Source of the DNA: Candidatus Binatia bacterium
Lineage (GTDB): Bacteria > Desulfobacterota > Binatia > Bin18
Assembly (NCBI GenBank): GCA_951812575.1
Contig: OX638322.1
Coordinates: 1,237,925 to 1,301,924 of the forward strand
DNA length: 64,000 nucleotides
Direction of reading: 5' to 3'
The notes beneath the pieces are model-generated. The model was given only the letters and a program-made list of their open reading frames with translations, searched no databases and was not told the DNA's origin. The number at the start of each line of letters is the position of its first letter. Positions within the stretch are counted from its first letter, which is position 1. The position numbers were made by a program, and so were the translations under genes. Positions 8,011-47,574 of the stretch are shown here, one piece after another.

Positions 8011-8023
8011 CGCCTTCCCCCTC

Positions 8024-8310
8024 AAAAATCCCCTCCCCGGAGGGGTGCTGCCTATGGTGTCGATGGCTCCCTACGGCCTGTCCGCTCGTGCCCTCACCCG
8101 GCCCTGCGGGCCACCCTCTCCCAGGGGGCGAGGGTAAAAAAGCTCCTCTCCCGCTGGGAGAGGGGTTGGGGTGAGGGCCAAACCGCCAGACAAGTTCATT
8201 TGCATCATACGTCCCGGAGGGGTGCCGCGTAGCGGCGGGGTGGGTTCCCTGCCCGTCGGCATCACACGTCCCTGGAGGGGTGCCGCGTCCCGACCGGAAG
8301 GGCGTTCCCC
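8024..8310. repeat. Cluster of GC-rich palindromic intergenic repeats between convergent genes
   Basis: AAAAATCCCCTCCCCGGAGGGGTG (8024-8047). Inverted arms GCCCTCACCC (8090-8099) and GGGTGAGGGC (8169-8178) enclose the hairpin CCTCTCCCGCTGGGAGAGG. There is a direct repeat CATCA(T/C)ACGTCCC(T)GGAGGGGTGCCGCGT at 8203 and 8260. The CCCCTCC..GGAGGGGTGGC..GGGGTGGGTTCC unit recurs at 27538-27584. Confidence 0.7.
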
Positions 8311-8353
8311 TGCTCCGTGCCTTATCTCTCGGTGTCCGAGTGTGCGGGCCACG

Positions 8354-8596
8354 TCAGGCTGCACCCTGTCGAATGGTAATGGCCTCGCGCAGGCCATCAA
8401 GCAGCCCTTCGAGGTGGGCCATACGCGCGCGCAGTTCGGTCATCTGCTGCTCCAGGGCCGTAAACCGCTCGTCAAAATACTGACGCTGCGCCGCCAGTTC
8501 GGCGCGGATGGCCCGTTGGCCGCCCAGCATCAACCCGGCCAGGGTCGCCCCCACCGCTACCACGGCTATCAGGACTCCGATCAGTTCGACACCCAT
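8354..8596 (-). CDS. Small membrane-anchored coiled-coil protein (hypothetical)
   Basis: 80 aa. N-terminal hydrophobic helix LIGVLIAVVAVGATLAGLMLGG, then a heptad-like segment FDERFTALEQQMTELRARMAHLEGLLDGL. Confidence 0.45.
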   Translation of the reverse strand: MGVELIGVLIAVVAVGATLAGLMLGGQRAIRAELAAQRQYFDERFTALEQQMTELRARMAHLEGLLDGLREAITIRQGAA

Positions 8597-8792
8597 GGCG
8601 TTTTCTCCAGTATACAGACCGGTGTTGAGCGAGGCATATACAGCCGATTATCACCAATAGGAAGGTCGGGGCAATACGGCGCAGGGCGTGCCACACGCAT
8701 ATTACCCTCAGCCTCAAACGTGCTGCCTGTCGGGTACAGCGCAGCGGCGGGTACATTGAAACCCTTGCGGAAATCCTCTAGCGTGCAGGACA

Positions 8793-10454
8793 ATGCTCGA
8801 ACGAATCTCGATCCTGTGCCTGAGCCTCGTGCTGGTGAGCGTCTGGGGCTGCTCGGCAACCCTCAGACGCCCCTCGGCCAAAGAATATTATCAGCAGGCA
8901 AGCGACTCTTTCACAGACGAGGACTATCTGGGAGCTTCCGATCAGTACCAGGAGTTGCTGGATCAATACCCACTCAACCCGTACGCTGAGGAAGCCCAGC
9001 TCAAAGCGGCCTATGGGCTGTTTATGGAAGAAAATTACGCCGAAGCCGTTGCGGCCTTTAAGGACTTTGAGCGGGCCTATCCGACCAGCAAGCATATGCC
9101 GTTTGTCAAATATTTTCTCGGTATTACGAATTATAGTCAGATTCGTTCCAAGGATCGTGACCAAGCCGTGACGCGCCGGGCGGACGGATTCTTTCAAGAG
9201 GTCATAGACCGATATCCGGAAAGTGCTTTCGTTCTCGAGGCTGAGGAAAAGAGCAAATCGGCGCGTGACATCCTGGCGGCCCACGAATTGATGGTGGCGA
9301 ACTTTAACGAAAAGCGCGACAATCTGACTGCCACAAAAGCCCGCCTGCGCAGCCTGATTGAGCAATACTCCGAAACGGATGCCACCGTGGAAGCCTTGGG
9401 TCGGCTCGAACAGATATTGAACGAAGAGGGTAACGTCGAGTTGGCCGAGCTGGCGGCCCGCGCTCAGTCTGCACGGAGAGCGGCCAGCCAGGCTCCCAGC
9501 GTGGAACCCCCCTTTTATTCCCCCCTATTAGGGGGGACACAGGGGGGTGAGGACGAGGTGACCGGCTCGGACGGTCTCCTCGTTGCCGGAGTCGATCCGT
9601 TATTGCTGCTCGTTTCCGAACTGAAAAAACAGGAGGAGGCAGAACGCCTGGCCCGGACGGAAGCGGATGCGGAAAGACTGGCAGCAGAAAAAGAGGCCGA
9701 GCAGGAGGAGCGGGCACTTGATGACGCCTTTGACGATGACCGCTCCTACGAAGTGGGTGACGATTATCGGGAAGTAGACTTGGAGGCCTTGGAAGCAGAG
9801 CGGGCCGCCCTGGAGACTCCCGACATTGAGGAGCTGGAATTCGACGTTGAGACAGACGATATCGGACCCTTGGAACTGACCGAGCAGGATGTAAAGAGGG
9901 AAGGTGTCCTTCCATCAGCCAGAGATGCTGGACACGTTTCCTCTTTCTCCGACGAGGACGATATTGATCTTTCTGACGATGACATCCTCACCCTTGACAT
10001 CGAGGACGACGCTATTGCGCTTGAGGAAGATGCTGAAGCCTTGGAAGCCGCTGGGGTGTTGGACGCTGAAGAAGAAGCTGGGGATGTCGTTGAAGAGATT
10101 GCTACAGTCGAGGACATGACTAGCGACGATGAGGTTGAAGGCGGCGCAGAGGTGGCCGAGGCAGAACCTGTCCTGAGCCCAGTCGAAGAGGAAGCCGAGG
10201 ACGACGAGGCAGTTATCGCAGTCGAGCAGAGTGAGCCGGTTGAGCTGGGTGAGTCAGAGGTTGAATACGCTGAAATAATAGATGAGGAGGCCGCCGCTTC
10301 CGACGTGCTCACGAACGGAGATGTCGCACTCAGCAAAAGAGGAAACGTTTCCTCCAATGATAGAGAGAGGCTGGAAACGTTCCCTCTTTCAGGACGGGAG
10401 GCCGTTCTGGGTATCGATATTGAGGAAATAGATTTCGAGTTTGAGGACGAATGA
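8793..10454 (+). CDS. bamD: BamD/YfiO-like outer-membrane assembly lipoprotein with ~330-aa acidic C-terminal extension
   Basis: Lipobox LVSVWGC. TPR-like N-terminal ~220 aa with the BamD-type pattern (YP.NPYAEEAQLK..Y, YPTSKH, RYPESAFV..A, AAHELMVANF). The remainder is D/E-rich low complexity. Confidence 0.65.
   Translation: MLERISILCLSLVLVSVWGCSATLRRPSAKEYYQQASDSFTDEDYLGASDQYQELLDQYPLNPYAEEAQLKAAYGLFMEENYAEAVAAFKDFERAYPTSKHMPFVKYFLGITNYSQIRSKDRDQAVTRRADGFFQEVIDRYPESAFVLEAEEKSKSARDILAAHELMVANFNEKRDNLTATKARLRSLIEQYSETDATVEALGRLEQILNEEGNVELAELAARAQSARRAASQAPSVEPPFYSPLLGGTQGGEDEVTGSDGLLVAGVDPLLLLVSELKKQEEAERLARTEADAERLAAEKEAEQEERALDDAFDDDRSYEVGDDYREVDLEALEAERAALETPDIEELEFDVETDDIGPLELTEQDVKREGVLPSARDAGHVSSFSDEDDIDLSDDDILTLDIEDDAIALEEDAEALEAAGVLDAEEEAGDVVEEIATVEDMTSDDEVEGGAEVAEAEPVLSPVEEEAEDDEAVIAVEQSEPVELGESEVEYAEIIDEEAAASDVLTNGDVALSKRGNVSSNDRERLETFPLSGREAVLGIDIEEIDFEFEDE
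9893..9947. repeat. ~55-bp palindromic interspersed element, copy b (inside the bamD-like CDS)
   Basis: AAAGAGGGAAGGTGTCCTTCC-loop-GGACACGTTTCCTCTTTC. Translated in frame as VKREGVLPSARDAGHVSSFS. Confidence 0.75.
10335..10390. repeat. ~55-bp palindromic interspersed element, copy a (inside the bamD-like CDS)
   Basis: AAAAGAGGAAACGTTTCCTCC-loop-GGAAACGTTCCCTCTTTC. Translated as KRGNVSSNDRERLETFPLS. Confidence 0.8.
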
Positions 10455-28224: not shown

Positions 28225-29139
28225 ATGGCGGCAAAAATCACTCCACGGCTGATTGAGTTGACGTATGAGGCCGCCCTAAAATCTTACTGGCGCAAAAGTG
28301 CTCTCCGAAAGTTTCTTCGCGCATCTCATATTTCTGAGACCTTCTTGGGCTCCTGGACTGGGGACGAGAGTAAACGTGAATTCTTAGATCGCGCTTTTGA
28401 GGAACTTCAGGAATCTGACAGGGGTAAAGCTGTAATTTTTCAAATGGCTCGAAGCCTCTCCGAGCAGACAACCTTTCCAGACCTTCGTAATTGGGAAGAC
28501 TCAGAACAAAAAGTCCAAGAGGCCCACGGAGCCGTTCAGGAGCTAAAGATATATCTTAAGCAACAGGATGAAGAAATTCGTAGTGAGAGAGAACAAGAAG
28601 AAGCTAAAAAAAGGGCGCGCGAAGAAAAGGCTCGTATACAACGATCCTTGACGGATCGAGCGTCTTTGCAACAACGTCTCGACGCTCTTCACTCTCAAGT
28701 TGGTACCCAAGTTGGTGGATATAAATTTGAGAATTGGTTCTATGATTTTTTAGATTTTTTCGATATCGACAATCGGCGTCCATACAAGACGAATGGAAGG
28801 CAAATTGATGGCTCCCTGACTTATGATGGGACAACCTACCTAGTTGAGCTCAAGTTCACATCTAATCAAGCGAAGCCCGCAGACATAGATTCTCTACGAG
28901 CAAAAGTTGAGGACAAAGCTGATAATACGATGGGGATCTTGGTATCCATATCGGGGTTCTCTAGTGTAGCGATTGACGGAGCTTCAGGACGACGCGGAGT
29001 ACTTCTCCTTTTCGATGCCCAACATATTTACTTATCTTTGTCAGGATCTCTAGGATTCGGTGATGTCATTTCTCGTATTAGAAGGCATGCTGCTCAAACC
29101 GGGAAAGCCTATCTTGAGGTGAGTAAATTCGGCGGATGA
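28225..29139 (+). CDS. Mrr-like PD-(D/E)xK restriction-endonuclease-fold protein with helical/coiled-coil N-terminal domain
   Basis: The C-terminal GRQIDGSLTYDGTTYLVELKFTS...MGILVSISGFSSVA fits the D...E.K Mrr_cat pattern. N-terminal ~190 aa are charged helices (EEIRSEREQEEAKKRAREEKARIQR). The region is AT-richer than its flanks. Confidence 0.55.
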   Translation: MAAKITPRLIELTYEAALKSYWRKSALRKFLRASHISETFLGSWTGDESKREFLDRAFEELQESDRGKAVIFQMARSLSEQTTFPDLRNWEDSEQKVQEAHGAVQELKIYLKQQDEEIRSEREQEEAKKRAREEKARIQRSLTDRASLQQRLDALHSQVGTQVGGYKFENWFYDFLDFFDIDNRRPYKTNGRQIDGSLTYDGTTYLVELKFTSNQAKPADIDSLRAKVEDKADNTMGILVSISGFSSVAIDGASGRRGVLLLFDAQHIYLSLSGSLGFGDVISRIRRHAAQTGKAYLEVSKFGG

Positions 29140-29753: not shown

Positions 29754-30068
29754 ATGAGTATTCCCAACAATAGAGCAAGACAGGTCCGTCCGACCCATCC
29801 AGGGGAAATGTTGCGGGAAGATTTCTTACCGGACTATGGGCTGACCGTGTCGAATTTTGCCCAGGCCCTTGGAGTGTCGCGCCAGACGGTGAATGAGTTG
29901 CTGCGAGAACGACGAGCCGTGAGCCCGGAGATGGCGCTACGGCTCTCTCGACTCTTTGGCAATACCGCTGAGTTTTGGCTAAACGCTCAGCAGGCGGTTG
30001 ATCTGTGGGATGGGGCCAGAGATATGAAAAAGCAACTCGCTCGGATTTCGCCCTTGAAAGCAGCGTAA
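29754..30068 (+). CDS. higA: HigA-type XRE-HTH antitoxin
   Basis: HPGEMLREDFL...LTVSNFAQALGVSRQTVNELLRERRAVSPEMALRLSRLFG.TAEFWLN.Q. Confidence 0.85.
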   Translation: MSIPNNRARQVRPTHPGEMLREDFLPDYGLTVSNFAQALGVSRQTVNELLRERRAVSPEMALRLSRLFGNTAEFWLNAQQAVDLWDGARDMKKQLARISPLKAA

Positions 30069-34852: not shown

Positions 34853-35200
34853 TTAGCCAGACGGACGAGAGTGGCGATAGCCGTGTGTAGGATTGGAACC
34901 GGCATTGAGACAGCCTTCCAATCTTTCGTAATCGCCCAGGTGAGCCCGCATCAGACTTTTCCACAGTCTGCCATGATTCGGCACGGAGAAATGCAGGAGC
35001 TCATGGACGATGACATAGTCCCACAGTTCGTCGTCAAGATCGAGCAACTCGCGGTTGAAGTTCAGATGGCCGTTCGTTGAGCAAGACGCCCACTTGTTGC
35101 GCATCGGACGAATGCCCAGCCAGACGATCTTCACGTCCAACTTCTCAGCCCAGGAATGGACGCGTTGCTTGAACTCCCGTTTGTGGTCGGTCGCCGGCAT
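34853..35200 (-). CDS. Short DUF45/YgjP-like (M48-type) zinc metallopeptidase, R-M-linked
   Basis: RNKWASCSTNGHLNFN..L......DYVIVHELLHF.VPNH (HExxH). Its start lies 3 nt after the hsdR stop. Only the C-terminal half of the usual ~230-aa protein is present. Confidence 0.65.
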   Translation of the reverse strand: MPATDHKREFKQRVHSWAEKLDVKIVWLGIRPMRNKWASCSTNGHLNFNRELLDLDDELWDYVIVHELLHFSVPNHGRLWKSLMRAHLGDYERLEGCLNAGSNPTHGYRHSRPSG

Positions 35201-35203
35201 AGA

Positions 35204-38107
35204 TTAATCTTGTCCGCCCCGCTCCAGCAACGTGAACAGCTCATCGACCATCGCCGTCACCCGCTCAAGCTCCTCTGTCTCCGCGAGAATGGCAAAGGTG
35301 ACCTCCTGGCGCAGTTCGCGGAGCGCACTCTCGCTTTGTTTCCAATTCGGAAAGTCAGAGAAGGCTTGACGAATGGTGCGGCTGACCGCCTCCGCATTGT
35401 CGATCCCGGCATCCGACAGACTCCGATACACGAAATACGTCAGCCCATCAAAGGACTTCTCCGTCTGTTCCTTTTTGCGCGCTTCGTTTTTGTCAACTTC
35501 CTTGAGGAGAGCTTCCAGGGCCTCGGCAGTGCTGGCCTGGCGGCTTTCAAAACTTTCCTGTACGGCCCGGGCGCGCTCGGCCATGGCGATCAGATACGGA
35601 TCGTCGCTGCCTTCCTCCGCCACCTTCTCAATGCTTTTGATCAAGTTGATGACCTGGGTTCCGTCGCTGCCTTGTCGCTTCTTGATGAGCTCAACGGTGT
35701 CCGCATTGATTGCGATGAGTCCTTCGAGCGATTCCACGCCATAGGAACTCACCTGCTCACGGACCAACAGCGCCGTTTTCCTTTGAAACTCCCGGTCGGC
35801 CTGAATCCGTCGTGTGTAAGCCTTGCGCACAACCTGGAAGATTGCGCTTAATGTTCCATACGTTTCCATGAACGGCCGCAGGAAGGCATCCGGCGAGATG
35901 ATCTCATACAGCATCTCGATCTCTTTGTATTCCCGAAAGAACTCTTTCCGCCGCTCAGGGGCGCGGAAGTGCTCAATCAGGATATCGACATCTTGGTCGT
36001 TAAAGGCGTGCTCGATAAGGCCGAGGTATTCCGGCGCTTTCTGCTGCATCTTGTTTTTGAAGAGGACCTTCAGGAGTGTGAGGTCTTTGACGATGGCGTT
36101 GATCTCATCGCTGTCGAAGGCGAGCGCCTTTTCGAGTTTGTCGAAGATACCGACGAAATCGAGGACAAAGCCGTGAGGTTTCACCATCCCCCGCGCCTCG
36201 TTTTCGTAGGGGCGGTTCACCCGGGCGATGGCCTGGAGCAGGGTGTGGTCGCGCATCGGCTTATCGAGATACATGGCGTAGAGCAGCGGCGCGTCAAAGC
36301 CGGTCAGCAGTTTCTCGGTCACGATGAGGATTTTCGGGTTCTGGTCGCGCTTGCCGAAGCGCTTGCGAATTTGCCGCTCCTGCTTCGGGTCAAGGTGAAA
36401 TTTCTTCAGCAACGCGGAGTCGTTGTTGTTCTTGGTGTAAACGACCTCGGAATACTCGGGCGGGAGGAATTCGTCGAGGGCGTGTTTGTAGTAGGCGCAG
36501 GCTTCGCGGTCGACGCCGACGAGGAAAGCCTTGTAACCGAGCGGTTCGACGTTCTCCACGTAGTGTGTGGCCACATACTGCGCCACCTGCGTGATCCGCT
36601 CCTGACTCTTGAGGAAGTTCTTCAAATGAACCGCACGCTCCAGAATCTTGTTGAGTTCTTCAATATCCGCCACCCCCTCGGCCTCGGCCAGGGAGAGAAA
36701 CTCCGCGTCCAGGGTCTCGTGCGGGACGAGCATCTTGTTGGGGGCGAGTTGGTAATAGAGCGGGAGCGTGGTGCCGTCCTCAATGCTGTCGGCAATGGAA
36801 TACTTGTGCAGATAGCCTTGGTCATCCTCGCAGCCGAAGGTCTTGAAGGTGCCCTTGCCATAGGCGGTCTTGTCCACTGGGGTGCCGGTGAAACCGAGAT
36901 AGGTGGCGTTTGGCAGACCGGCCATGAGAAAGTTGCCGAGATCGCCGCCGGTGGTGCGGTGGGCTTCGTCGATGAGGACGTAGATGTTCGAGCGGGTATT
37001 GAGGTCCGCCGGCATGCCGCGGAACTTGTGGATCATCGTGACGATGATGCCCCGATAGTCGTCCTTCAGTAACTGGTTGAGCCGCTCTATGCTGTCGGCG
37101 TGTTCCAGGTTGCCCAAGCCGAGTGCGGCCAGGTTCTTGAGCATCTGGTCTTCCAATTCGTTGCGGTCAATCATGAGGAGGACGGTCGGCTTGTCGGCCT
37201 CGGGCGCGCGGAAAAGTCGCTCTGCCGCTTTGATCATGGTGAAGGTCTTGCCGCTGCCCTGGGTGTGCCAAACGAGGCCACGGGTCCGGTCGGGGGTTAG
37301 GGCGCGTCCAACCGTGGCGTCCACCGCGCCGGTTTGGTGCTGGCGCAGAATGTATTTGTTCAGCTCCTCATCCTTCTCGGCAAAGATGATGTAGTCCTTC
37401 AGGAAGGCGAGCACCTGGGGGATGGCGCAGAAGCTCTTCACCTTGGCCTCCAGCCTGCCGGCCTCGGCATCCTTCCAGTTGAAGATGTTGCGCCGCACCG
37501 TGTTCCAGGTCGCGCCGTAGGAAAAGCCGATGGCGTCGGTGGCGATAAAGAGTTGCTGGGAAATGAACAGCTCGGGGGTCTCGCGGTGGTAACGGCGGAT
37601 TTGATCCACGCCGAGGGCTATCGCCTCGTCTTTGGTGGCGTTCTTACACTCGATGACCAGCACGGGAATGCCGTTGATAAGAAAGACGACATCCTCCCGC
37701 GTACCATAATGGCCGTTGTGACAAGCCCACTCTTCGGTGACTTCGTACACGTTGCGCGTCGGGTCGTTGTAATCGATCAGGATCAGGTCGCGCTCGCGGT
37801 TCTCCTCGTGGTCAAGGAACTTGCCACGGTTGCGCAGGTGCTCGACGAAGTCCCGGTTGCCGTAGATATCGGTGTGGAAATGTCGTAACTGGCCGAGCAA
37901 GGTGTCCTCGGCCTCGGTATAGCGCGGGTTGAATTCCCGTACTTTGGCGTCAAGCAAATCGTCGAAGAAAAGCGACAAGGGAGGGGAGGCAGGAGTCCTT
38001 CCTCTCCTTTGCTCGGCTTGCTCGCGGGGCACAAACGTCCAACCAATAGCCTCGGCGTATGTGAGGATGCGGGCTTGGACGGTTTTGTGTTCGGTAGGGG
38101 TGGGCAT
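35204..38107 (-). CDS. hsdR: Type I restriction enzyme R subunit
   Basis: N-terminal PD-(D/E)xK (DVVFLINGIPVLVIECK). Helicase motifs HTQGSGKTFTM and VLIDEAHRT. 967 aa. Confidence 0.95.
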   Translation of the reverse strand: MPTPTEHKTVQARILTYAEAIGWTFVPREQAEQRRGRTPASPPLSLFFDDLLDAKVREFNPRYTEAEDTLLGQLRHFHTDIYGNRDFVEHLRNRGKFLDHEENRERDLILIDYNDPTRNVYEVTEEWACHNGHYGTREDVVFLINGIPVLVIECKNATKDEAIALGVDQIRRYHRETPELFISQQLFIATDAIGFSYGATWNTVRRNIFNWKDAEAGRLEAKVKSFCAIPQVLAFLKDYIIFAEKDEELNKYILRQHQTGAVDATVGRALTPDRTRGLVWHTQGSGKTFTMIKAAERLFRAPEADKPTVLLMIDRNELEDQMLKNLAALGLGNLEHADSIERLNQLLKDDYRGIIVTMIHKFRGMPADLNTRSNIYVLIDEAHRTTGGDLGNFLMAGLPNATYLGFTGTPVDKTAYGKGTFKTFGCEDDQGYLHKYSIADSIEDGTTLPLYYQLAPNKMLVPHETLDAEFLSLAEAEGVADIEELNKILERAVHLKNFLKSQERITQVAQYVATHYVENVEPLGYKAFLVGVDREACAYYKHALDEFLPPEYSEVVYTKNNNDSALLKKFHLDPKQERQIRKRFGKRDQNPKILIVTEKLLTGFDAPLLYAMYLDKPMRDHTLLQAIARVNRPYENEARGMVKPHGFVLDFVGIFDKLEKALAFDSDEINAIVKDLTLLKVLFKNKMQQKAPEYLGLIEHAFNDQDVDILIEHFRAPERRKEFFREYKEIEMLYEIISPDAFLRPFMETYGTLSAIFQVVRKAYTRRIQADREFQRKTALLVREQVSSYGVESLEGLIAINADTVELIKKRQGSDGTQVINLIKSIEKVAEEGSDDPYLIAMAERARAVQESFESRQASTAEALEALLKEVDKNEARKKEQTEKSFDGLTYFVYRSLSDAGIDNAEAVSRTIRQAFSDFPNWKQSESALRELRQEVTFAILAETEELERVTAMVDELFTLLERGGQD

Positions 38108-38119
38108 CTCTTGTCTTTC

Positions 38120-39265
38120 CTACCTTTTCTTGGCGTTCCCAGGACGCTTTGCGGGTAATCCAATGGCCACGCCCAGTTCTTTCGCCGTTGGCAGTTTGCC
38201 TTTCAGTTCCTTCGGCAAGGTTGGCTTCAGCTGATATTCCGCCACTCCGATCGGGTTAACTTTCGACTTCAGCGCGAATTCGACTTCGACATCATCCTTT
38301 TCCGCGCAGAGGATAATCCCGATGGACGGGTTGTCATCAGTCGCCCGTTCCTTTTCATTCAGCACATTCAGATAGAAATCCATCTTGCCGGCGAACTCCG
38401 GCTTAAACTCGCCGATCTTCAGTTCAATGGCGACGAGGCATTTGAGGAAGCGATGATAGAAGAGCAGATCAATGAAGTATTCCTTCTTCCCGGCCACCAC
38501 TCGATGTTGCCTGCCGATGAAACAGAAACCGTAGCCGAGTTCCAGGATGAAATCCTTCAACTGCTCAATCAGCTTGTCTTCCAGCTCCCGTTCCTTAATC
38601 TCCCGACCGATGCCAAGAAATTCCAGGTTGTAGGAACTCTTCAGCGCTTCCTCCGCCTGCTCGGCGAGGTACTCCGGCAGAGCGAGAGGGAAATTGTGTA
38701 CTTTTCCTTCAGCTAGGCTGCGCCCGTAGGCATCCGCTTTGATCTGGTTCAGCAGAACAGCTCTCGTCCAACCAAACTGAGCAGTTGCTCGGAGGTAGTA
38801 AAGTCGTTCTCGTGGCGCCTTCACTTTCTTGGTGATCTCAACAAGGTGCCCCCAAGGCACTGGCGACAGAACTTCTTGAACAAGCTGTTCAAGAATTGCC
38901 GATTCTCCCACGGCCGCTTCCGGGGAATCCAATCGCTGCGACAGAACTTCTTGAACAAGCTGTTCAAGAATTGCCGGGGAACTGTATTCCGAGTAAAACT
39001 GCCGCATAAGCCAGAGGTTATTGGCAGAAACCCCCTTCATCCCTGGAAACTCTGCCCTCAAATCCAAGGACAATTGCTCCACCACCGACTTCCCCCAACC
39101 CAACTCTCCCTGCTTCTCTACGATTCCGCGTCCGATGTCCCAGTAGAGCAGGATCAGGTCGCGGTTCACCGAGCGCGCCGCCGAGATCCGCGCCGACTGA
39201 ATCCGCGATTTTACTTCGCCCAGCCAAGCGGTGTAGTCAGGAGATGGCGTCAGTTTGTCAGGCAT
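38120..39265 (-). CDS. DUF1016/YhcG-like PD-(D/E)xK nuclease-fold protein
   Basis: AARSVNRDLILLYWDIGRGIVEKQ...WG..VVEQLS.DL...FPG.KG.S..NL..MR.FY and a C-terminal IDLLFYHR.L.C.VAIELK. Confidence 0.8.
   Translation of the reverse strand: MPDKLTPSPDYTAWLGEVKSRIQSARISAARSVNRDLILLYWDIGRGIVEKQGELGWGKSVVEQLSLDLRAEFPGMKGVSANNLWLMRQFYSEYSSPAILEQLVQEVLSQRLDSPEAAVGESAILEQLVQEVLSPVPWGHLVEITKKVKAPRERLYYLRATAQFGWTRAVLLNQIKADAYGRSLAEGKVHNFPLALPEYLAEQAEEALKSSYNLEFLGIGREIKERELEDKLIEQLKDFILELGYGFCFIGRQHRVVAGKKEYFIDLLFYHRFLKCLVAIELKIGEFKPEFAGKMDFYLNVLNEKERATDDNPSIGIILCAEKDDVEVEFALKSKVNPIGVAEYQLKPTLPKELKGKLPTAKELGVAIGLPAKRPGNAKKR
38863..38975. repeat. In-frame 75-bp tandem duplication inside the DUF1016 gene
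   Basis: The 38-nt perfect repeat GCGACAGAACTTCTTGAACAAGCTGTTCAAGAATTGCC occurs at 38863-38900 and 38938-38975. In the protein this gives AILEQLVQEVLS twice. Confidence 0.85.
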
Positions 39266-39341
39266 AGTCTTTCACGAAAACAAGCTGCGATGGCGTTCTG
39301 TGGTTGAGGCAAATTCATTCCACTTTGTTGCTGTAATTGAT

Positions 39342-39612
39342 CAGGGTGTTCGACGAATTCCCGGTTGGTGTGGAAATGTCGTAACTGGCCGAGCAAGGTG
39401 TCCTCGGCCTCGGTATAGCGCGGGTTGAATTCCCGCACTTTGGCGTCAAGCAGGTCGTCGAAGAAAAGCGACAAGGGAGGGGAGGGAGGGGAGGCAGGAG
39501 TACCCCTTCTCCGTTGCTCGGCCTGCTCGTGAGGTACAAATGTCCACCCGATGGCCTGGGCGTATGTGAGGATGCGGGCCTGGACGGTTTTGTGCTCGGA
39601 GGGAAGAGGCAT
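39342..39612 (-). pseudogene. hsdR: Remnant of an hsdR 5-prime end (first ~90 codons)
   Basis: MPLPSEHKTVQARILTYAQAIGWTFVPHEQAEQRR...LSLFFDDLLDAKVREFNPRYTEAEDTLLGQLRHFHT parallels the N-terminus of the intact HsdR. It includes a 69-nt run identical to 37871-37939. Homology stops near 39342. Confidence 0.85.
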
Positions 39613-39646: not shown

Positions 39647-41908
39647 TCATTTCTCTACATCCTCCTCGCGTGCGGGTTCGACAGGAATGACTTGTTCATC
39701 GATTCTATTTGGAACGTCATTTGTGATAATGTTTCCAATGATTCCCAGGACAAGTACCAAAATAATTGAGGACCAAAGCCACGCCCGAAATCGACTTATC
39801 TGCTGAAACGGCCAGAGCTGGTTAAACGCCTCATTTCGTTTCACGCATGCCTCAATAATTAAGTGGAGGAGGACGAAGACGAAAACGCCAATAATGATTT
39901 GAAAGGGAATGGTGCCAATTAATTTTGTCAATAGCTGGACTTTTCCAGCCAGCCAGCCTCCAAATACCGAGATCAAGAGGACACCAGCGAAAAGGAAACT
40001 ATATTTGACGAAAGCACCCTTTTTCGCCTGCTCGATCTTGCTGTCATTGAGTCGATTTGAAATCTCTTCGATCTTCTGATCTTGCTCTTGGAGTTTGGAG
40101 TTCGCCAACGCAATCTCTGTCTTCTCAGCAGCCACACGCGCTTGCAGTTTCTTGATCTCCTTTTCCTTTCCAGCGGACTCAGACATCAAAGTTAGAATCT
40201 GGGAATCCCGAGCTTTGACCTCCGTGTCCAAATTCTCTGCGCGATTCTTTTCTTTCTCGGCTTGAGCCTGTATTTCCTCTACGAGCGCGTCCCGAATCAG
40301 TTTGGCTTCCACGTCTTTGTTCTGTTCGGAACCCAATCGAGCTCGCAGTTCTTCGTTAAGCATGACCTGGCTAATAGATTCCTCAGAGATATGCTCATTT
40401 CCCTCAAACTGGCCAATTCTTTTCAAGATTCGAAGACTTATGCGTTCGGCTTCCGGATCGAAATCCTGAAATAAGAATGGCAGCCGCATGCTGCCGAGGA
40501 TCGCTTCTTCAAACTCTGGTGTCCGGGGAACCCAGAATTGAAGAAGCTGAATTAGTGATGTGGGATGAACGCAGATCGGAACAGAGGCACCCTGGCTTTT
40601 ACGCTTGCGCTCATCGAATCCGATAAATCGAAAATCTAACGTAAGGATCCAGTCTTGGGCGTCGACTGGTGACTCGACGTAGCTCGGCCGATTGTCATTA
40701 ACAAGGTGCCAAAGAACCATGTCGTGCTGAACCATTTCAAATGACTTAGCACGAAGTCCCCTGTCTTTTTCAGATTCTAAAACAGTGTGAATATCATCAA
40801 CTACGTCCTGGCGAACTACGTAATCGTCGAGCTCTTCATTGTATAGCTTGACACCTTTGTCTCGTGCTAAAAGGACAAAGTTATCCAGGTAAGGGTCGAA
40901 CCAATCACCAACTGACAATTCCTCTGACCTGTCAGCCTGCTCATTGAGAAATCTCGCGAGGAGCCCCGAAAATCTGACGTGTGATGCAGCCCCGGCAAAG
41001 TTGGTTCCGGCAGGAAGTCCAGCAAGGCGGTATTTAGCTGATGAGATGGAACGCTTTGCCTCGTCAATCGTTCGCGGCGTCACATAAAGATCAATTTTCA
41101 GATTCGAGTTTAACGAATCAATCAGGTCTTTCAGCTCGGTTGCTGCCGAATTAGAAGGATTATCATGCAGATTCAAAATTGAAAACAGGAAGTTTGTATC
41201 AACAAACACACGGAATCTGATCCTCTTGCCCGCACTGGATCTCAACTTTGTAATCACGCTGTCTGGTAAACCGCTCGCTGCGACACAAAATGTAGCGTGA
41301 AGCGTCCGGCTGATGTATGACCTCACTGCTTCGTTCTTCGGATCAAGAAAGCGCGAGATCAGTTCCAATAACTGGGTTTCAATATTCGAGTCGAATTCCT
41401 CCTGAAACTCGCGAACGAGTTTCTTGTTAACCGTCATTTCTTCACCGGCGATTAGCTTGTAGGCGTTCGCTCCTATTTCGCGAATGAGCGGCGCAAGAAA
41501 GACGGATTCAAATTTGCTCCACGCCTCCTCAGGTGAGAGATCATTACAAAGCTCTTTAACTAGCTCGAAAAAAAATTCTTTTGCGACCCGGCCCGAGTTT
41601 TCTGCAGACGCGATTTCTTCCTCAAAAACAGACTGTTTGCTATCAGGAATGCGAAACTCGTCGTTTGAGAGTCGAATCAGAAAATCCTGTGATTCGAGCA
41701 CTTTTATTACAGACTCGACCTTTGCTACGCTCACGGATAGGGCGAATGCCGATTCCAAGATTGTTCGAATCTTGTCGACTGATGGATTGTTGTCGGCAAG
41801 CCAAACAGAAGCAAGAATCAGACGCTGCATGGCTTTATCCCACCAACCATCTCTATGCAACTCAACGTGGTGGACGATAGCAGCCAACAGTTTGGAAGTG
41901 GAATTCAT
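39647..41908 (-). CDS. PIN-like domain protein with coiled coil and three C-terminal transmembrane helices (unknown function, R-M embedded)
   Basis: RFRVFVDTNFLFSIL, YVTPRTIDEAKR, VQHDMVLWH (PIN-like acidic pattern). Coiled coil at ~590-660. TM helices FLFAGVLLISVFGGWLAG, IPFQIIIGVFVFVLLHLII and LWSSIILVLVLGIIGNII. 13-nt gap to the hsdS stop. Confidence 0.55.
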   Translation of the reverse strand: MNSTSKLLAAIVHHVELHRDGWWDKAMQRLILASVWLADNNPSVDKIRTILESAFALSVSVAKVESVIKVLESQDFLIRLSNDEFRIPDSKQSVFEEEIASAENSGRVAKEFFFELVKELCNDLSPEEAWSKFESVFLAPLIREIGANAYKLIAGEEMTVNKKLVREFQEEFDSNIETQLLELISRFLDPKNEAVRSYISRTLHATFCVAASGLPDSVITKLRSSAGKRIRFRVFVDTNFLFSILNLHDNPSNSAATELKDLIDSLNSNLKIDLYVTPRTIDEAKRSISSAKYRLAGLPAGTNFAGAASHVRFSGLLARFLNEQADRSEELSVGDWFDPYLDNFVLLARDKGVKLYNEELDDYVVRQDVVDDIHTVLESEKDRGLRAKSFEMVQHDMVLWHLVNDNRPSYVESPVDAQDWILTLDFRFIGFDERKRKSQGASVPICVHPTSLIQLLQFWVPRTPEFEEAILGSMRLPFLFQDFDPEAERISLRILKRIGQFEGNEHISEESISQVMLNEELRARLGSEQNKDVEAKLIRDALVEEIQAQAEKEKNRAENLDTEVKARDSQILTLMSESAGKEKEIKKLQARVAAEKTEIALANSKLQEQDQKIEEISNRLNDSKIEQAKKGAFVKYSFLFAGVLLISVFGGWLAGKVQLLTKLIGTIPFQIIIGVFVFVLLHLIIEACVKRNEAFNQLWPFQQISRFRAWLWSSIILVLVLGIIGNIITNDVPNRIDEQVIPVEPAREEDVEK

Positions 41909-41921
41909 GGGTGACGCAATC

Positions 41922-43235
41922 CTAATCCGTTGGCGTGTTAACCCTAGTCTTCGCGGTCATCAGTTCGTGAAGAAGGGTGCGGAAGAGAGATTGAAGAGCA
42001 TCTCTCTTCTCTTGGTGTTTCTGTATCTTCTCTTCCACGCCGTGGATGGCGTTCGCGATCTCGACCTGCTCGTCGTAGGTGGGACTTGGAATCTTTAGTG
42101 CGGAAATCTCGTTCTTGTTGTAGTTGGCCTGATTGACGGCTCTACGAGCGAGCTTTACGAATACGCTTTCCTCCCTGTAGTGATTCATCAAGTGTTTAAG
42201 AAAGTAGTTGTGGGACTTTTTTTCACCAGTGCAGATCCGCAGGATAAACGAGGCAAAGATATACTTCTCATTTTGCGTATGAAAGATGGTGCTTTTCCCG
42301 ATTAGCGGAGGGCTATTGCGCCAGTTGAAGAGGACGTCGCCATCGTTCAGCGTGAGCCGGGTGGCGGTCTTTTCTGGGACTTCAATCCGGCGAATTTTCC
42401 CGTAAAGCAGGTTTCCTTGTTTATCGATATCGGCAGTACTAACGATCTTCACACCATCCGCAGGTGGTGTTTTTGGGATCGCTTGAGAGACACCATAGTC
42501 TATGAACTCAACTGTCTCAATTAGCGGGACCACCTCCCAACTTTCGGGCATGGGACCGATTTCAGTTTGTTTTCGGGGTTCGTTGCGAAGGCCTTCGGTG
42601 AAGAGCTTGTGCATGAGAGTCTTTTTCAGCTCGGTGGTGGCCTGAATGATCCGCTCCTGCGCTTCGATCGCCCGCTGCACCGTCGAAAGGATGTGCGCGA
42701 TCTTCTTCTGCTCGGGGAGCGGAGGTAGCGGAACCGTGATGCGGTAGAAACTCTTTGGATCCACACGTTGACGACTCGGTGTGGAACCAGAGACCAGCGT
42801 TTTCGCGATGGGCATAACGTGGTCGGACCATTCAAGGAAGTAAAGGAAGTCAGGATCGACTCGCTCATCAGGAAGAATGGGAATCCACTCCGTTGATCCA
42901 ATTTGACGAAATTCAGATGACTCGGCAACGCGCCACACTTTTTCCACTCTCGGATTCAGTTTGCCGAAAAGGACTGTCTTTGGTTCCAGAAGTAGCTTGG
43001 AACTCTCTATTGCATCGCCCGCAGTGAGACTTGGGGTCTGACCGCGCTGATAGTCGGGGATGCTGTAATACTCAAACGTCTCGTCGGCGAAGTTCTTTGG
43101 AGTCAGTGTTGGCGCTTTCCGAATGTTAATATCACCAAGAGCGATGATATCCCAATCATCGGGAAGATTTTCGAGAAGTATGCTCATACCCCAATCCTCT
43201 CCGGTCCAATCGGGAGGAAGTTCTTTGTACAACAC
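41922..43235 (-). CDS. hsdS: Type I restriction enzyme specificity subunit
   Basis: Two target-recognition halves separated by the conserved helices PLPPLPEQKKIAHILSTVQRAIEAQERII and IPSPTYDEQVEIANAIHGVEEKIQ. Confidence 0.9.
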   Translation of the reverse strand: MLYKELPPDWTGEDWGMSILLENLPDDWDIIALGDINIRKAPTLTPKNFADETFEYYSIPDYQRGQTPSLTAGDAIESSKLLLEPKTVLFGKLNPRVEKVWRVAESSEFRQIGSTEWIPILPDERVDPDFLYFLEWSDHVMPIAKTLVSGSTPSRQRVDPKSFYRITVPLPPLPEQKKIAHILSTVQRAIEAQERIIQATTELKKTLMHKLFTEGLRNEPRKQTEIGPMPESWEVVPLIETVEFIDYGVSQAIPKTPPADGVKIVSTADIDKQGNLLYGKIRRIEVPEKTATRLTLNDGDVLFNWRNSPPLIGKSTIFHTQNEKYIFASFILRICTGEKKSHNYFLKHLMNHYREESVFVKLARRAVNQANYNKNEISALKIPSPTYDEQVEIANAIHGVEEKIQKHQEKRDALQSLFRTLLHELMTAKTRVNTPTD

Positions 43236-43318: not shown

Positions 43319-43996
43319 TCAGCGATTCAAGTTCTCCAATTTACTTACCCATTCGTTGAAGAGCGGGCATGACTCGCGCATTCTATCAATTCCGATTTCC
43401 TGAGCGATGCCGATACCAGTCACGGTCTTCTTGAATCGGTCAGACAAGCCTTCCAACTGCTTGGATGGAGCAGTCTGGGGATTGTCGTTGATCTTCTCCG
43501 GTTCGTCGTCGTATCCAGAAAGAATTTTCTGCACCTCTTCTGGCCGAACATTCAATTTTCGGGCCAGAATTTCGGCATCACTGAAGAGCAGTGCCTCAAA
43601 CTCGAACATCGAAACATAGGGTATGAATCGCCGCTGTGCATATTGATCGCTGAAGAGTTCGTTTACCCGCTTCCGGGTCGCTTCGTTCATCACTCGCGCC
43701 TTCGATGTGTGGCGTCTTTTACGTTTTGACTCCTCGTAGCCGGGCCAATCACCCTTAATACCGAAGTAATCGACAAGCAACGTCAGCCAGGTTTCGTTTC
43801 TTTGCTTGAGATGGCGTTCAATGTCGTTTCTGGCCCGCGAAAAACGAACGTCACCGCCCTTCTGGCCGGGCTTTGTCAGGATAATCGGGGTGATGTAGAC
43901 CTCTGTCCGCGCGAGATAGGGACCTAAAATATCTTGGACAAAGATTCTCTCGGTCGGGCCTTCGACCAGCGCTACCACCTCGGCGGTCCTACTCAT
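43319..43996 (-). CDS. DUF4276-like (Toprim-like) protein
   Basis: MSRTAEVVALVEGPTERIFV (conserved E), LTLLVDYFG, FIPYVSMFEFEALLFSD. Its ATG overlaps the ATPase stop (TATGAGTAG). The ORF-track start 44056 is rejected. Confidence 0.6.
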   Translation of the reverse strand: MSRTAEVVALVEGPTERIFVQDILGPYLARTEVYITPIILTKPGQKGGDVRFSRARNDIERHLKQRNETWLTLLVDYFGIKGDWPGYEESKRKRRHTSKARVMNEATRKRVNELFSDQYAQRRFIPYVSMFEFEALLFSDAEILARKLNVRPEEVQKILSGYDDEPEKINDNPQTAPSKQLEGLSDRFKKTVTGIGIAQEIGIDRMRESCPLFNEWVSKLENLNR

Positions 43997-45095
43997 AAAC
44001 CGGCCCCCCCGAGATGACGTTTTTACTCCACAGTTCGCCCACGGAATAACTTTCAAGCCATGCTCGATAGTCCTCTTCGTTCAGGCGTTCAAACGTGGAC
44101 GCGCCCCTTTTCCGGTTGACCACAACGACATCCTCAACCGAGAAGTTGTCGATCAGTGCCGGTGACTGTGTCGCCACGATGAGCTGGGTGCGCTTCGAGG
44201 CGTTTTGAATCAGCTCTGCCAAAATGCTGATTGCGGCAGGATGGAGTCCCAACTCCGGTTCGTCAATGATTAAGGAAGAGGGAAGGTCGGGTTGCAATAA
44301 GGCGGTTGCCAGACAGATAAACCGGATACTGCCGTCGGAGAAATGATACGGCTGCATCGGGTAATCCGAGCCCTTGGCGTGCCAGGAAAGCGCCACCTTC
44401 CTTTTCGGTCCGAAGCTTTCTACGTCAAGGAGAAAATCATCGAGACAGGGAATCACCAATTTACAGGACTGGAGAATTTCTTGGTACGTTTCCTCGTCCC
44501 TTTTTTTGAGTCTCCGCAAGAATGGCGCAATATTCGAGGCATCGAAACGCAGAGTCTTGTTGTCTTGCACGATCTCTGCATGCCGCATTGCCGCCGTCTC
44601 GCTCGTGTCGTGAAAATGATAGATTTTCCATGAAGCAATGGACTCATATACTGGCCTGCTGTATTGGGCGTCATGGGCCTTTTCTTTTGCCTCTTTCACA
44701 AGCAAGGGTTGTCCATCCGGACTGTCTCCTAGCTCCCACCATTTCGTCATCCCGTGCCCATAGTAACGAGCTTCGTCTGTCAGCGCACAACCTTCGGATG
44801 GGCCGGGTTTGATAGTAAAACGGTATCCGCGTGACCCGAAGCGCGTTTCAAACTTGAGGCGTTTTGTGACCCTTCGTCCGTTAAAGAGGAGGTCGCTGAT
44901 TCCCCCGCTGTCTCGAACGTAGTCATTCAGATTTCCGTTGATGAGTGCTTGCAGCAGGCGGAAAAAGGCAATGAGGTTGCTTTTTCCCGTGCCATTGGCA
45001 CCGATTAACACATTCAGGCTCTTGATCTCAAAATTTTCCAGCTCACGGATAGATTTGAATCCTCGTATCGTCAGTCTGTCTAAAGGGTCTCCCAT
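43989..45095 (-). CDS. ABC/SMC-like AAA ATPase partnered with DUF4276
   Basis: Start taken at MGDPLDRLTIRGFKSI. Walker A LIGANGTGKSN, signature-like FSDGSIRF, Walker B LIIDEPELGLHP. The ORF-track N-terminal extension overlaps hsdM. Confidence 0.8.
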   Translation of the reverse strand: MGDPLDRLTIRGFKSIRELENFEIKSLNVLIGANGTGKSNLIAFFRLLQALINGNLNDYVRDSGGISDLLFNGRRVTKRLKFETRFGSRGYRFTIKPGPSEGCALTDEARYYGHGMTKWWELGDSPDGQPLLVKEAKEKAHDAQYSRPVYESIASWKIYHFHDTSETAAMRHAEIVQDNKTLRFDASNIAPFLRRLKKRDEETYQEILQSCKLVIPCLDDFLLDVESFGPKRKVALSWHAKGSDYPMQPYHFSDGSIRFICLATALLQPDLPSSLIIDEPELGLHPAAISILAELIQNASKRTQLIVATQSPALIDNFSVEDVVVVNRKRGASTFERLNEEDYRAWLESYSVGELWSKNVISGGPVYE

Positions 45096-45118: not shown

Positions 45119-46666
45119 TTATACCCCAATCTTCCCCAGAATCTGCCGCAATACCGTGTCCGTTTCCCGCGCCTCGGCTTCGATAACGTCGAGTTCGGCC
45201 ACAATCTCCGCAAGCGGCCGGTAGGTCTCCGCGTCGTCGGTGTGAATGTAGCGACTGGGGGAGATGTTGTAGTCGTTTTTCTTCAGCTCCGCGTGATCGA
45301 CAATGCGGCTGAGTTTTTCCTCTTCCTGCCACCCTATCAGGGTGTCGGCGATACGGGTGATACCCTCGGGTGGGATGAAGTTCTTGGGGTCGCCCTTCTC
45401 GAAGACCCGGCTGGCATTAACGAGAAAGACTTTGCCCTGCCGGGCTTTTGGCTTGGCCTTGTTGAGGAACAGGACGATACCTGGGGCTGTGGTGTTGTAG
45501 AAGAGGTTTTCGGGCAGATAGAGGACGCTCTCGATGAGGTCCTGCTCAACAAACCACTGACGGACGGTTTTTTCCTTGTTGGTGCCGGCATTGCCCGAGC
45601 CTCGGGAGGCGGCACCGGTGTCGAGGACGACGGCAGCGCGACCTTCGGCATTGAGGCTGGCGTGCATGTGCTGGACCCAGCCCCAGTCGGCGGAAGATTT
45701 TCCGGGGAAACCGGGCGGGAAGCGGTCGAATTCGTCATTGTCGTAGTCGGCCTCAGTGTACCAGTCCTGATTCCACATGGGATTGGCGACGACGCGATCG
45801 AAAGTACGCAGCTTGCCGTTTTTTTCGGCGCGGAACTTGGGGTTCTTGAAGGTGTCGCCGATCTCGATCTGGCCCTCCATGTCGTGGATGATCATATTCA
45901 TGTTGGCCATGGCCCAGGTCTCGGGGATGTATTCCTGGCCGAACAGTTTGAGAGGCGGGTATTGCGTCTTGTCGGCGGCTGTCATTTTCGCTTCCATGGC
46001 GAGCTCGCACTTGATGAGAAGGCCGCCGGAGCCGCAGGTGGGGTCGTAGATTTCCATACCCGGATCAGGCACGAGGACGCGGGCGATGATCTCGCCGACC
46101 TCGCCGGGGGTGTAGAACTCGCCGGCACTCTGACCGCTGCCCTCGGCGAACTTGCGGATAAGGTATTCGTAGCTCTTGCCGATGATGTCGGCCTCAACGT
46201 CCTCAAGCCCGAGGCGCTTGGTGCTGATGGCCTCAATGAGGTTGGAGAGGCGGTCGTCGTCGAGGTCGCGCTGGCCGTGGGTGGTCGCGTTGAAGTCCAC
46301 GCGGTCGATGATGCCTTGCAGGGGCGGGTTTTCCCTGGCGATGGCCCGCATGTGGCTGGTGACGCCTTCGCCGATCTTGTCCGAGAGCTTGCGAATGACG
46401 GACCAGACCGGCTGTTCGGGATCGTCCGGCATGAGGGGGAGGTAGAAGCGGACAAGCTTGTGGTCGGCTCCGGCGAGCTGGAAGGCTTTCTTGCGCGAGC
46501 CGACCTTGGCGTCGATGCGGTTCAGTTCATCATCAAAGACATCGCACAGGCGTTTGGTGAAAATAAGGGGCAGGATGTAGTCCTTGTATTTCGGTGCGTC
46601 CTTGGCCCCACGGATGGAGCAGGCGGCGTCCCATATCCAGGATTCCAAGGATTTGAAGTGGGACAA
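45119..46666 (-). CDS. hsdM: Type I restriction enzyme N6-adenine methyltransferase subunit
   Basis: HsdM_N-like N-terminus (LWDAACSIRG..D...YKDYILPLIF.KRL), AdoMet motif YDPTCGSGGLL, catalytic ANPMWNQ. Confidence 0.95.
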   Translation of the reverse strand: MSHFKSLESWIWDAACSIRGAKDAPKYKDYILPLIFTKRLCDVFDDELNRIDAKVGSRKKAFQLAGADHKLVRFYLPLMPDDPEQPVWSVIRKLSDKIGEGVTSHMRAIARENPPLQGIIDRVDFNATTHGQRDLDDDRLSNLIEAISTKRLGLEDVEADIIGKSYEYLIRKFAEGSGQSAGEFYTPGEVGEIIARVLVPDPGMEIYDPTCGSGGLLIKCELAMEAKMTAADKTQYPPLKLFGQEYIPETWAMANMNMIIHDMEGQIEIGDTFKNPKFRAEKNGKLRTFDRVVANPMWNQDWYTEADYDNDEFDRFPPGFPGKSSADWGWVQHMHASLNAEGRAAVVLDTGAASRGSGNAGTNKEKTVRQWFVEQDLIESVLYLPENLFYNTTAPGIVLFLNKAKPKARQGKVFLVNASRVFEKGDPKNFIPPEGITRIADTLIGWQEEEKLSRIVDHAELKKNDYNISPSRYIHTDDAETYRPLAEIVAELDVIEAEARETDTVLRQILGKIGV

Positions 46667-46876: not shown

Positions 46877-47143
46877 ATGGGTAATATGGGAGAGATGAAA
46901 ACGACCCTTGATATCCACGACGAACTTCTGGCACGGGCGAAACGTCATGCCAAGAAGACGGGCCGCCCCTTGCGCGCCGTGGTTGAGGACGGGCTCCGAC
47001 AGGTGCTTGCTGCGTCTCCCTCCCGGAACCGCTATCGGCTGCCCGATTTGAGCACCGGCCATGCCGGCGCGGAGGACCCTCTTGAGGTCTATTCGTGGCA
47101 GGACCTGCGCGGGTTGATCTACGGAGAGACTGAAACACGATGA
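46877..47143 (+). CDS. vapB: VapB-type antitoxin
   Basis: MKTTLDIHDELLARAKRHAKKTGRPLRAVVEDGLRQVL. Its stop overlaps the vapC ATG (ATGA). The true start may be ATG 46895. Confidence 0.75.
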   Translation: MGNMGEMKTTLDIHDELLARAKRHAKKTGRPLRAVVEDGLRQVLAASPSRNRYRLPDLSTGHAGAEDPLEVYSWQDLRGLIYGETETR

Positions 47144-47574
47144 TTGCTGTCGATACGAACCTGCTCGTCTACGCCCACCGCAAGGAATCCCGCGTGCATG
47201 AAGCCGCCTTTGCGATTGTGCGGACGCTTGCCGAGGGGAACCAGGTGTGGGCGATTCCCTGGCCCTGCTGCTACGAATTCCTGAGTGTCGTAACAAACCC
47301 TCGAATTTGGAAAGACGCGGCAACATCGCCGGAGCGTGCATGGCGGCAACTCGAAGCCTGGACCACCTCGCCAAATAATCGTCTGCTCGGCGAGACCGAC
47401 GACTTTCTCAAGGTATTGAGCGATCTCGTGCAGCGGCCGCGGGTGCGCGGTGCGGTCGTCCACGATGCCCGGATCGCCGCGCTCTGCCTGGCCCACGGTA
47501 TTGAAGCGCTCCTCACCCGTGACCGTGATTTCTCGCTATTTCCAGAACTGCGAACACGAGATCCGTTCGGTTAG
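47140..47574 (+). CDS. vapC: VapC PIN-domain toxin
   Basis: MIAVDTNLLVYAH....HE.A ... HDARIAALCLAHG...LLTRDRDF. Confidence 0.85.
   Translation: MIAVDTNLLVYAHRKESRVHEAAFAIVRTLAEGNQVWAIPWPCCYEFLSVVTNPRIWKDAATSPERAWRQLEAWTTSPNNRLLGETDDFLKVLSDLVQRPRVRGAVVHDARIAALCLAHGIEALLTRDRDFSLFPELRTRDPFG

Follow-up and report, generated by a model that had tools for sequence, protein, structure and literature searches.

The DNA stretch considered here (the window) comprises 64,000 nucleotides from a Candidatus Binatia bacterium (assembly GCA_951812575.1, contig OX638322.1, positions 1,237,925 to 1,301,924) and contains a type I restriction-modification (R-M) operon in which a gene of no named family, hereafter the target, is embedded. 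The target is an ATG-start open reading frame (ORF) on the minus strand (39647-41908) that encodes a protein of 753 aa. It is a one-gene cassette, and its product combines a winged helix-turn-helix (wHTH), a helical domain, a PIN-like core, a coiled coil and three transmembrane (TM) helices, in that order, as judged from the ORF, its homologues and a structural model. The original prediction, made from the sequence alone, had placed a 753-aa ORF at this position without stating its strand and had reported a 13-nt gap to hsdS; both statements are correct, the spacer between hsdS and the target being exactly 13 nt long (GATTGCGTCACCC).

The genes of the operon all lie on the minus strand, in the order hsdM, AAA_21 plus DUF4276, hsdS, target, hsdR stub, DUF1016/YhcG, hsdR and YgjP-like gene. 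The methyltransferase subunit is encoded by hsdM (45119-46666; N6_Mtase, E 4e-88, and HsdM_N). The hsdM-hsdS interval is occupied by a HEC-01 pair (43319-45095), an ABC/AAA_21 ATPase and a DUF4276 protein with likely starts at 45095 and 43996, respectively, which was recognised with Pfam and with PADLOC (HEC-01A, E 9e-134; HEC-01B, E 3e-72); in its source paper, HEC-01 gave no protection against the phages tested. The specificity subunit gene hsdS (41922-43235; Methylase_S, E 9e-20) precedes the target, and a stub of 120 codons (39250-39612) begins 34 nt downstream of the target stop codon. This stub is a duplicate of the hsdR 5' end: it aligns over ~270 nt and at high identity with the true hsdR start (37840-38107), and the DUF1016 gene lies between the two copies. 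The latter (38120-39265), located just before hsdR, encodes DUF1016_N and a YhcG PDDEXK nuclease (Pfam, E 3e-61 and 4e-39) and corresponds to the PADLOC candidate PDC-S02 (E 2e-130). Then come the intact hsdR (35204-38107), the restriction/translocase subunit gene with HSDR_N, SWI2_SNF2, ResIII and T1R_D3-like domains, and, at the operon end, a YgjP-like metallopeptidase gene (34853-35200; E 2e-24). The order hsdS-X-hsdR on a single strand, as originally described, is thus found, but the target does not directly precede hsdR because the stub and the DUF1016/YhcG gene intervene. One R-M operon holds three embedded modules, namely the target, HEC-01 and DUF1016/PDC-S02. A promoter and terminator scan of the operon performed no better than on shuffled sequence, and an Rfam scan of the operon found no RNA family. 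The YgjP-like gene is short (115 aa) and covers only positions 113-205 of the 207 in the profile, that is, the C-terminal half; the same short form occurs in one of the homologous loci described below (L029), and another of these loci (L030) has a version of 238 residues. On the plus strand (46877-47574), the genes of an 88-aa VapB-like antitoxin and of a 144-aa VapC, a canonical PIN toxin (PF01850, E 5e-10), stand head-to-head with the operon start, and an identical VapC is on record (P0270, on a 5.18 Mb contig).

The architecture of the target protein was examined in an AlphaFold (AF2) model of the full-length chain, computed with 50 homologues as input (mean pLDDT, the per-residue confidence score of the model, 77). 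Residues 1-90 (41639-41908) hold an N-terminal motif kept in both clades of the family (see below) and a wHTH: residues 1-20 are disordered in the model, the invariant motif consists of H14, E16, G21 and W22, and the wHTH (about residues 22-90) is built from helices 22-37, 44-55 and 61-73 plus a beta wing, with fold matches to the PadR, IclR, MntR, Fur and LmrR regulators. Residues 91-225 (41234-41638) form an all-helical domain of unknown type, without a family match. By these fold matches, the ~220-residue helical N-terminal region of unknown type that had been proposed contains a wHTH at residues ~22-90. The PIN-like alpha/beta core occupies residues 226-480 (40469-41233), strand 2 being followed by a long helical insert and the beta-alpha core spanning 230-457 in the model; it was assigned by fold match and motifs. 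A linker (residues 481-530, 40319-40468) leads to a charged coiled-coil stalk (residues 531-635, 40004-40318), which is a long helix in the model and shows weak SMC/Rad50/coiled-coil matches. The model has a single continuous helix from 531 to 654, in which the coiled coil runs into the first TM helix, followed by helices 666-689 and 699-729. A charged coiled coil was expected at this place, but its length is ~105 residues and not ~70. Finally, residues 636-731 (39716-40003) constitute a membrane anchor of three TM helices, as had been anticipated: hydropathy gives three TM-like segments (~636-657, 665-688 and 709-731). The stretch before the first TM helix is basic, as is the loop between the second and third, and the C-terminal tail is acidic; from this, most of the protein is predicted to be cytoplasmic, with the N-terminus in and the C-terminus out.

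Two to three C-terminal TM segments are present in 23 of the 24 relatives. The exception is a 643-residue distant relative from Dyadobacter koreensis (L028, 9539-11470), in which the D-T-N, E, H-D and T-x-D motifs are retained but TM segments are absent; its gene lies ~5.5 kb upstream of an hsdM-hsdS pair. Among viral structures, a fold search returned small wHTH proteins and a weak XRN match only.

Several lines of evidence point to a PIN-like core, which we consider quite likely. (i), when the full model was compared with PDB folds, the top match was the PIN domain of yeast Nmd4 (8rdd; probability 1.00, E 0.015, target-normalised TM-score 0.54), in a region where pLDDT is about 80-90; by this match, whose E-value is borderline, the region would have a three-layer alpha/beta/alpha fold with a parallel sheet like that of solved PIN domains. 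(ii), residues D237, E283, D425 and D432 are invariant across 24 loci and 50 database members, and T238, N239, D372, K388, H395 and D396 are likewise invariant across the 24 loci. These loci come from Proteobacteria, Nitrospirota, Bacteroidota, Acidobacteriota, Chloroflexota, Actinomycetota and a Methanosarcinaceae archaeal metagenome-assembled genome (MAG), and their proteins go down to 30% overall identity. By their places in the model, the four acidic residues would be the canonical PIN positions (the Asp that follows strand 1, the Glu in the helix behind strand 2, the Asp that follows strand 4 and one more Asp/Glu). The four peptides that had been quoted as carrying the acidic positions are all present, at residues 230-244, 275-286, 393-401 and 420-428. 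(iii), the topology of the model, with a helical insert after strand 2 and helices after strand 3, agrees with the published description of DUF4935-type PIN domains (PMC5499597). (iv), sub-threshold matches to PIN_3 (window protein, E 0.074), PF01850 (two distant members, E 0.0039 and 0.046) and PIN_12 (18 of 50 members, best E 0.044; 10.8 bits in L019) all fall at one position across different members.

Other results count against this assignment. No PIN-clan profile reached its curated threshold in any member scanned (the gathering threshold of PIN_12 is 32 bits). Sequence searches of the PDB with the full and PIN-only profiles returned coiled-coil or chance matches and no PIN protein. With hhalign, the PIN region gave no meaningful match to the single sequence of the window's own VapC and a probability of 2% against a 30-sequence VapC alignment, a weak negative given how shallow that alignment is (at least 72% identity). 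A domain-only model (residues 225-500, 17-sequence alignment) had a pLDDT of 55, and the fold search made with it was uninformative, Nmd4 ranking second and VapC20 fifth, both at low probability. The assignment is made from one borderline fold match (E 0.015) and the motifs. The PIN-like core of the original prediction is hence upheld by the Nmd4 match and by the invariant acidic residues but not by any curated profile; support is moderate and the protein stands outside every existing Pfam PIN family.

The target belongs to a large family. A word-indexed search recovered 454 relatives, all full-length (~720-790 residues) and, where named, all called 'hypothetical', and a profile search run exhaustively over 1.84 billion representatives retrieved 727 clusters at E<=1e-30 and 1232 at E<=1e-10 (clusters at 50% identity). 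The existence of at least 454 full-length homologues and 727 representative clusters rules out a chance ORF. A look-up of the exact target protein in a contig index returned no record. No Pfam, NCBIfam or PADLOC model exists for the family, and the only match of the target in PADLOC-DB 2.0.0 (5027 models) is a coiled-coil match to PbeC (E 0.091), so the claim that no named defence system fits holds for these libraries. Conservation differs strongly along the protein. The PIN-like core is the best-conserved region (63% identity within the close clade, clade A, and 42% between clades), the coiled coil (29% and 18%) and the TM region (37% and 16%) being the least conserved. This pattern fits a conserved enzyme carried by a stalk and an anchor that would be constrained in structure rather than in sequence.

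The genomic contexts were analysed separately for close relatives (~40% identity or more, from genomes and long metagenome contigs) and for a distant clade (30-40% identity). In 18 of 21 close-relative contexts the gene lies in or beside a type I R-M system. It occupies the hsdS-hsdR interval, sometimes with extra genes, in the window and in L001, L003, L004, L005, L007, L008, L009, L010, L029 and L035, and in several loci it abuts or overlaps hsdS and hsdR (4-14 nt overlaps). Elsewhere the homologue is upstream of hsdM (L006 and L030/L031, the last two with SoFic, a Thoeris-type TIR protein or CBASS genes adjoining), is followed by an AAA_13 gene and an hsdR-S-M operon (L032), ends a string of hsdR, PLD, hsdM, Shedu and GmrSD genes on an integrative and conjugative element (ICE; L034), comes after an hsdR, hsdMS, DUF3644 operon (L036) or follows the hsdS remnant of a degraded R-M system (L033). 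No type I system was present within 10 kb in three cases (L002, with a ResIII helicase; L011, with a NACHT ATPase; L013, with glmS/glmU). An independent scan of metagenome contigs gave a similar picture: of 23 informative loci, 17 had hsdS immediately upstream and 14 had hsdR downstream. Overall, the gene is in or beside type I R-M in ~80-85% of the informative close-relative contexts. This enrichment is very large next to the ~1% expected of a random gene, a figure that is a rough estimate and not a computed control; the enrichment of homologues beside R-M genes that the original prediction called for is thus strongly borne out for close relatives. Three of these loci (L030, L031 and L032) belong to defence islands that start right after radC (dut/dfp/radC) and carry different cargo (Thoeris TIR, CBASS, SoFic); the radC flank may be an integration hotspot in these genomes.

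The distant clade is different: a type I system was found in 0 of 63 loci, and no neighbour was common to more than 6 of them. In four loci (L078; L099, 4931-11205; L104; L110), the homologue directly follows the gene of an Eco57I-type enzyme of ~1340 residues (1339 in one subset) with a methylase domain and precedes a Mrr_N plus Mrr_cat gene, and four others (L023, L092, L093 and L096) have a Type ISP enzyme as neighbour. Because of these Eco57I-type and Type ISP neighbours, the association with R-M is not confined to type I. A PADLOC scan of 116 neighbours added a few further defence genes (Iet, PARIS-like AriA and type IIG enzymes).

How did the target reach its place? Its GC content (0.467 vs 0.595 for hsdM, 0.579 for hsdR and 0.586 for the window) makes it compositionally foreign. 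The R-M backbone of L029 is 91-93% identical to the window's at the DNA level (hsdM, hsdR and YgjP-like gene), whereas its copy of the target (8001-10307) reaches just 65% DNA identity and 58% protein identity; the L029 operon is without HEC-01 and has a different insert before hsdR. The comparison points to allelic replacement or to very fast divergence of the embedded gene. On a broader scale, the HsdM and HsdR partners divide into six or more type I lineages that are at most 35% identical, differ in HsdR C-terminal domains and sometimes have M-S fusions, and the targets are 40-60% identical regardless of lineage. Furthermore, hsdR stubs are found directly 3' of the target homologue in L005 (12274-12702), L032 (10193-10519) and L052 (4405-4707). 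Taken together, composition, the L029 comparison, the mix of lineages and the hsdR stubs indicate repeated cassette exchange at the hsdS-hsdR junction; the sequences suggest that this exchange could proceed by recombination through conserved gene ends, including the hsdR 5' end. The junction is known to host unrelated cassettes such as DarTG2, TgvAB and PrrC (PMC12255303; PMC11411939; bioRxiv 10.1101/2024.01.29.577857). Because it is a general landing site, embedding in an R-M operon is not by itself evidence of functional coupling.

We thus lean, at chances that we would put slightly above even, towards the view that the target is a horizontally mobile, self-contained one-gene anti-phage module that acts independently of the R-M enzyme and is not its dedicated guard. 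The protein would be held in the inner membrane by its three C-terminal helices, and the ~105-residue stalk, which probably gives a dimer or higher oligomer, would carry a cytoplasmic head made of the N-terminal wHTH/helical module and a metal-dependent PIN-like nuclease. The nuclease would be the conserved working part, with the anchor and stalk playing structural roles, and the N-terminal module would most likely bind nucleic acid or an activating cue. Co-transcription with type I R-M genes may simply arise because the hsdS-hsdR junction is a recombination hotspot that collects defence cassettes; the protein would then be a second, independent layer and not an R-M subunit. Once tethered, a nuclease that would otherwise be toxic could reach only nucleic acid close to the membrane, for instance the entering phage genome or early transcripts, and this would explain the lack of an antitoxin. 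As for a partner of this kind, no neighbour is conserved in the 63 distant loci and there is no room for one in the overlapping S-X-R loci; a type II, VapBC-like toxin-antitoxin arrangement was therefore rejected. One-protein PIN defence genes that work without an antitoxin have been validated, namely DS-3 (PMC13092281) and Cosus (bioRxiv 10.1101/2024.07.02.601719), although their architectures differ, and genes embedded in defence systems show high validation rates (bioRxiv 10.1101/2024.01.29.577857).

Some observations sit uneasily with the view of an independent anti-phage module. Most distant-clade loci are found among housekeeping genes (IF-2, chaperonin, ribonucleotide reductase, SLT/LysM), and part of the family, in that clade, may serve a purpose other than defence. 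A tblastn search of the PLSDB plasmids found no homologue. Lastly, the very frequent association of close relatives with type I systems could mean functional coupling.

Such coupling is at the heart of the original prediction, according to which the target sits in the prrC slot and acts as a PrrC-like guard: the R-M complex would silence the nuclease, a phage anti-restriction function would free it, and the cutting of tRNA or another RNA would abort the infection. The position between hsdS and hsdR is indeed shared with prrC, the junctions are tight in many loci (a 13 nt gap or 4-14 nt overlaps), and the ~80-85% association with type I systems nears the exclusivity reported for PrrC (bioRxiv 10.1101/2024.01.29.577857). 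Related R-M operons also seem to gain the gene independently and at different positions (between the window and L006, HsdM is 82% identical and the target 50%), and other members adjoin type IIG or ISP enzymes. However, the slot argument loses its force at a junction that holds unrelated cassettes, two of them in the window operon itself. Moreover, the target stays at 40-60% identity beside at least six heterogeneous partner lineages (HsdM at most 35%), which argues against one co-evolved interface. The gene also persists beside a degraded R-M system (L033) and without any R-M system (L002, L011, L013, L041, L061 and most of the distant clade), its position varies (before hsdM, after entire operons or next to type IIG or ISP enzymes), and the ABC ATPase and anticodon-nuclease domains of PrrC were not found. 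We therefore regard a guard function as unlikely, and as less likely than an independent module.

A further reading is conceivable, in which the whole family is a general R-M companion, a membrane-tethered PIN nuclease that reads out the failure or engagement of ATP-dependent R-M enzymes (type I, IIG, ISP) or, alternatively, a cutter of the phage genome or its first transcripts at entry, in the manner of SNIPE (PMC13190303). We give these two ideas, taken together, a small chance. If either were true, it would reveal a new, location-based distinction between self and non-self that relies on a nuclease fold not known to work in this manner.

It is quite improbable that the target has no part in defence and is a membrane enzyme of nucleic-acid processing or housekeeping, or a selfish toxin stabilising mobile DNA, that merely hitch-hikes in R-M operons. 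The housekeeping neighbours of most distant-clade loci and the absence of a conserved partner would fit such a role, and membrane-bound PIN proteins of unknown, probably non-defence function do exist (COG4956, PMC5499597). Against it speak the patchy distribution, foreign composition and rapid allelic turnover of the gene, the very strong enrichment of close relatives beside R-M and other defence genes, with one copy on an ICE, and the co-orientation and tight coupling in defence operons, which fit the published pattern of embedded defence genes.

Finally, TM effectors are common in abortive-infection systems, H682, E686 (polar, in the second TM helix) and W712 are invariant in the close clade and a few members have weak holin-like or SLATT matches, but a membrane effector, in which TM helices oligomerised by the coiled coil would depolarise or permeabilise the membrane and the PIN-like and wHTH head would be a sensor only, seems very unlikely, given that the TM region is the least conserved between clades (16%), that the conservation of H682 and E686 does not extend to the distant clade and that the candidate catalytic residues are invariant everywhere, which is unexpected for a pure sensor.

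Outside the operon, ~6 kb away, a gene for a 304-residue protein that contains a charged coiled-coil segment and, at its C-terminus, a Mrr_cat restriction-endonuclease domain (28225-29139) lies ~600 nt from a gene for a HigA-like HTH_3 protein (29754-30068); these may be further defence or toxin-antitoxin genes.

The family comprises more than 700 clusters at 50% identity, from many bacterial phyla and an archaeal MAG, yet it is unnamed, has no domain model and is absent from defence catalogues, even though few passengers of type I R-M operons recur as consistently as its close members. Should it prove to be anti-phage, it would add a one-gene system of unusual design, with a PIN-like nuclease on a membrane-anchored coiled-coil stalk. 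It also offers a tractable case for asking why cassettes pile up at the hsdS-hsdR junction and whether the passengers cooperate with the R-M enzyme or act alongside it, and the hsdR 5' stubs suggest how cassettes are swapped.

That nuclease genes, PIN-like ones included, can be embedded in type I R-M operons was already known (PMC5499597; bioRxiv 10.1101/2024.01.29.577857), but this family and its architecture are undescribed in the libraries and literature searched. The closest known systems include PIN_12/DUF4935 proteins (PF16289, VapC-like group), which give the most frequent PIN-clan match and share the beta1 Asp and later Glu/Asp/Asp pattern, the long helical insert after strand 2, the helices after strand 3 (PMC5499597) and a usually monocistronic organisation. 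Two validated defence genes, Cosus (integron cassette Brc24) and DS-5, are of this type (bioRxiv 10.1101/2024.07.02.601719; PMC13092281). DUF4935 proteins are, however, soluble, ~350 aa long and begin with the PIN domain, whereas the target has a 225-residue wHTH/helical module before the core and a coiled coil and three TM helices after it, and scores far below the gathering threshold (best E 0.044). Identity with DS-3 of DefensePredictor was rejected because the architecture differs: DS-3 is ~340 aa long, with catalytic D7 and E42 and no TM segment. Proteins of the COG4956/YacL type combine a PIN domain with TM helices as the target does, but they have four N-terminal TM helices and a TRAM domain (PMC5499597), in contrast to the C-terminal TM helices, coiled coil and wHTH of the target, and no sequence match links the two. 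HEC-03, described by guilt-by-embedding (Payne et al. 2024), resembles the target in that a gene with a nuclease domain lies inside a multi-gene defence system, and it includes a PIN protein; it differs in being a two-gene ATPase plus PIN system, and no HEC or PDC model of PADLOC 2.0.0 matches the target. With PrrC and RloC, the target shares the hsdS-hsdR slot, the co-orientation with R-M genes, the lack of an antitoxin and the single nuclease gene, its own nuclease being predicted, but it has no ABC ATPase and no PrrC/RloC match in Pfam, NCBIfam or PADLOC, is predicted to be membrane-anchored and is not tied to one R-M lineage or slot. Set against SNIPE (DUF4041 plus GIY-YIG), the target is PIN-like, has no DUF4041 or GIY-YIG (T5orf172) Pfam match and bears its anchor of three TM helices at the C-terminus and not at the N-terminus, but SNIPE is, and the target would be, a one-protein inner-membrane defence nuclease in which the anchor and coiled coil are poorly conserved and the nuclease well conserved, and in SNIPE the membrane location lets the nuclease strike entering phage DNA while sparing self DNA (PMC13190303).

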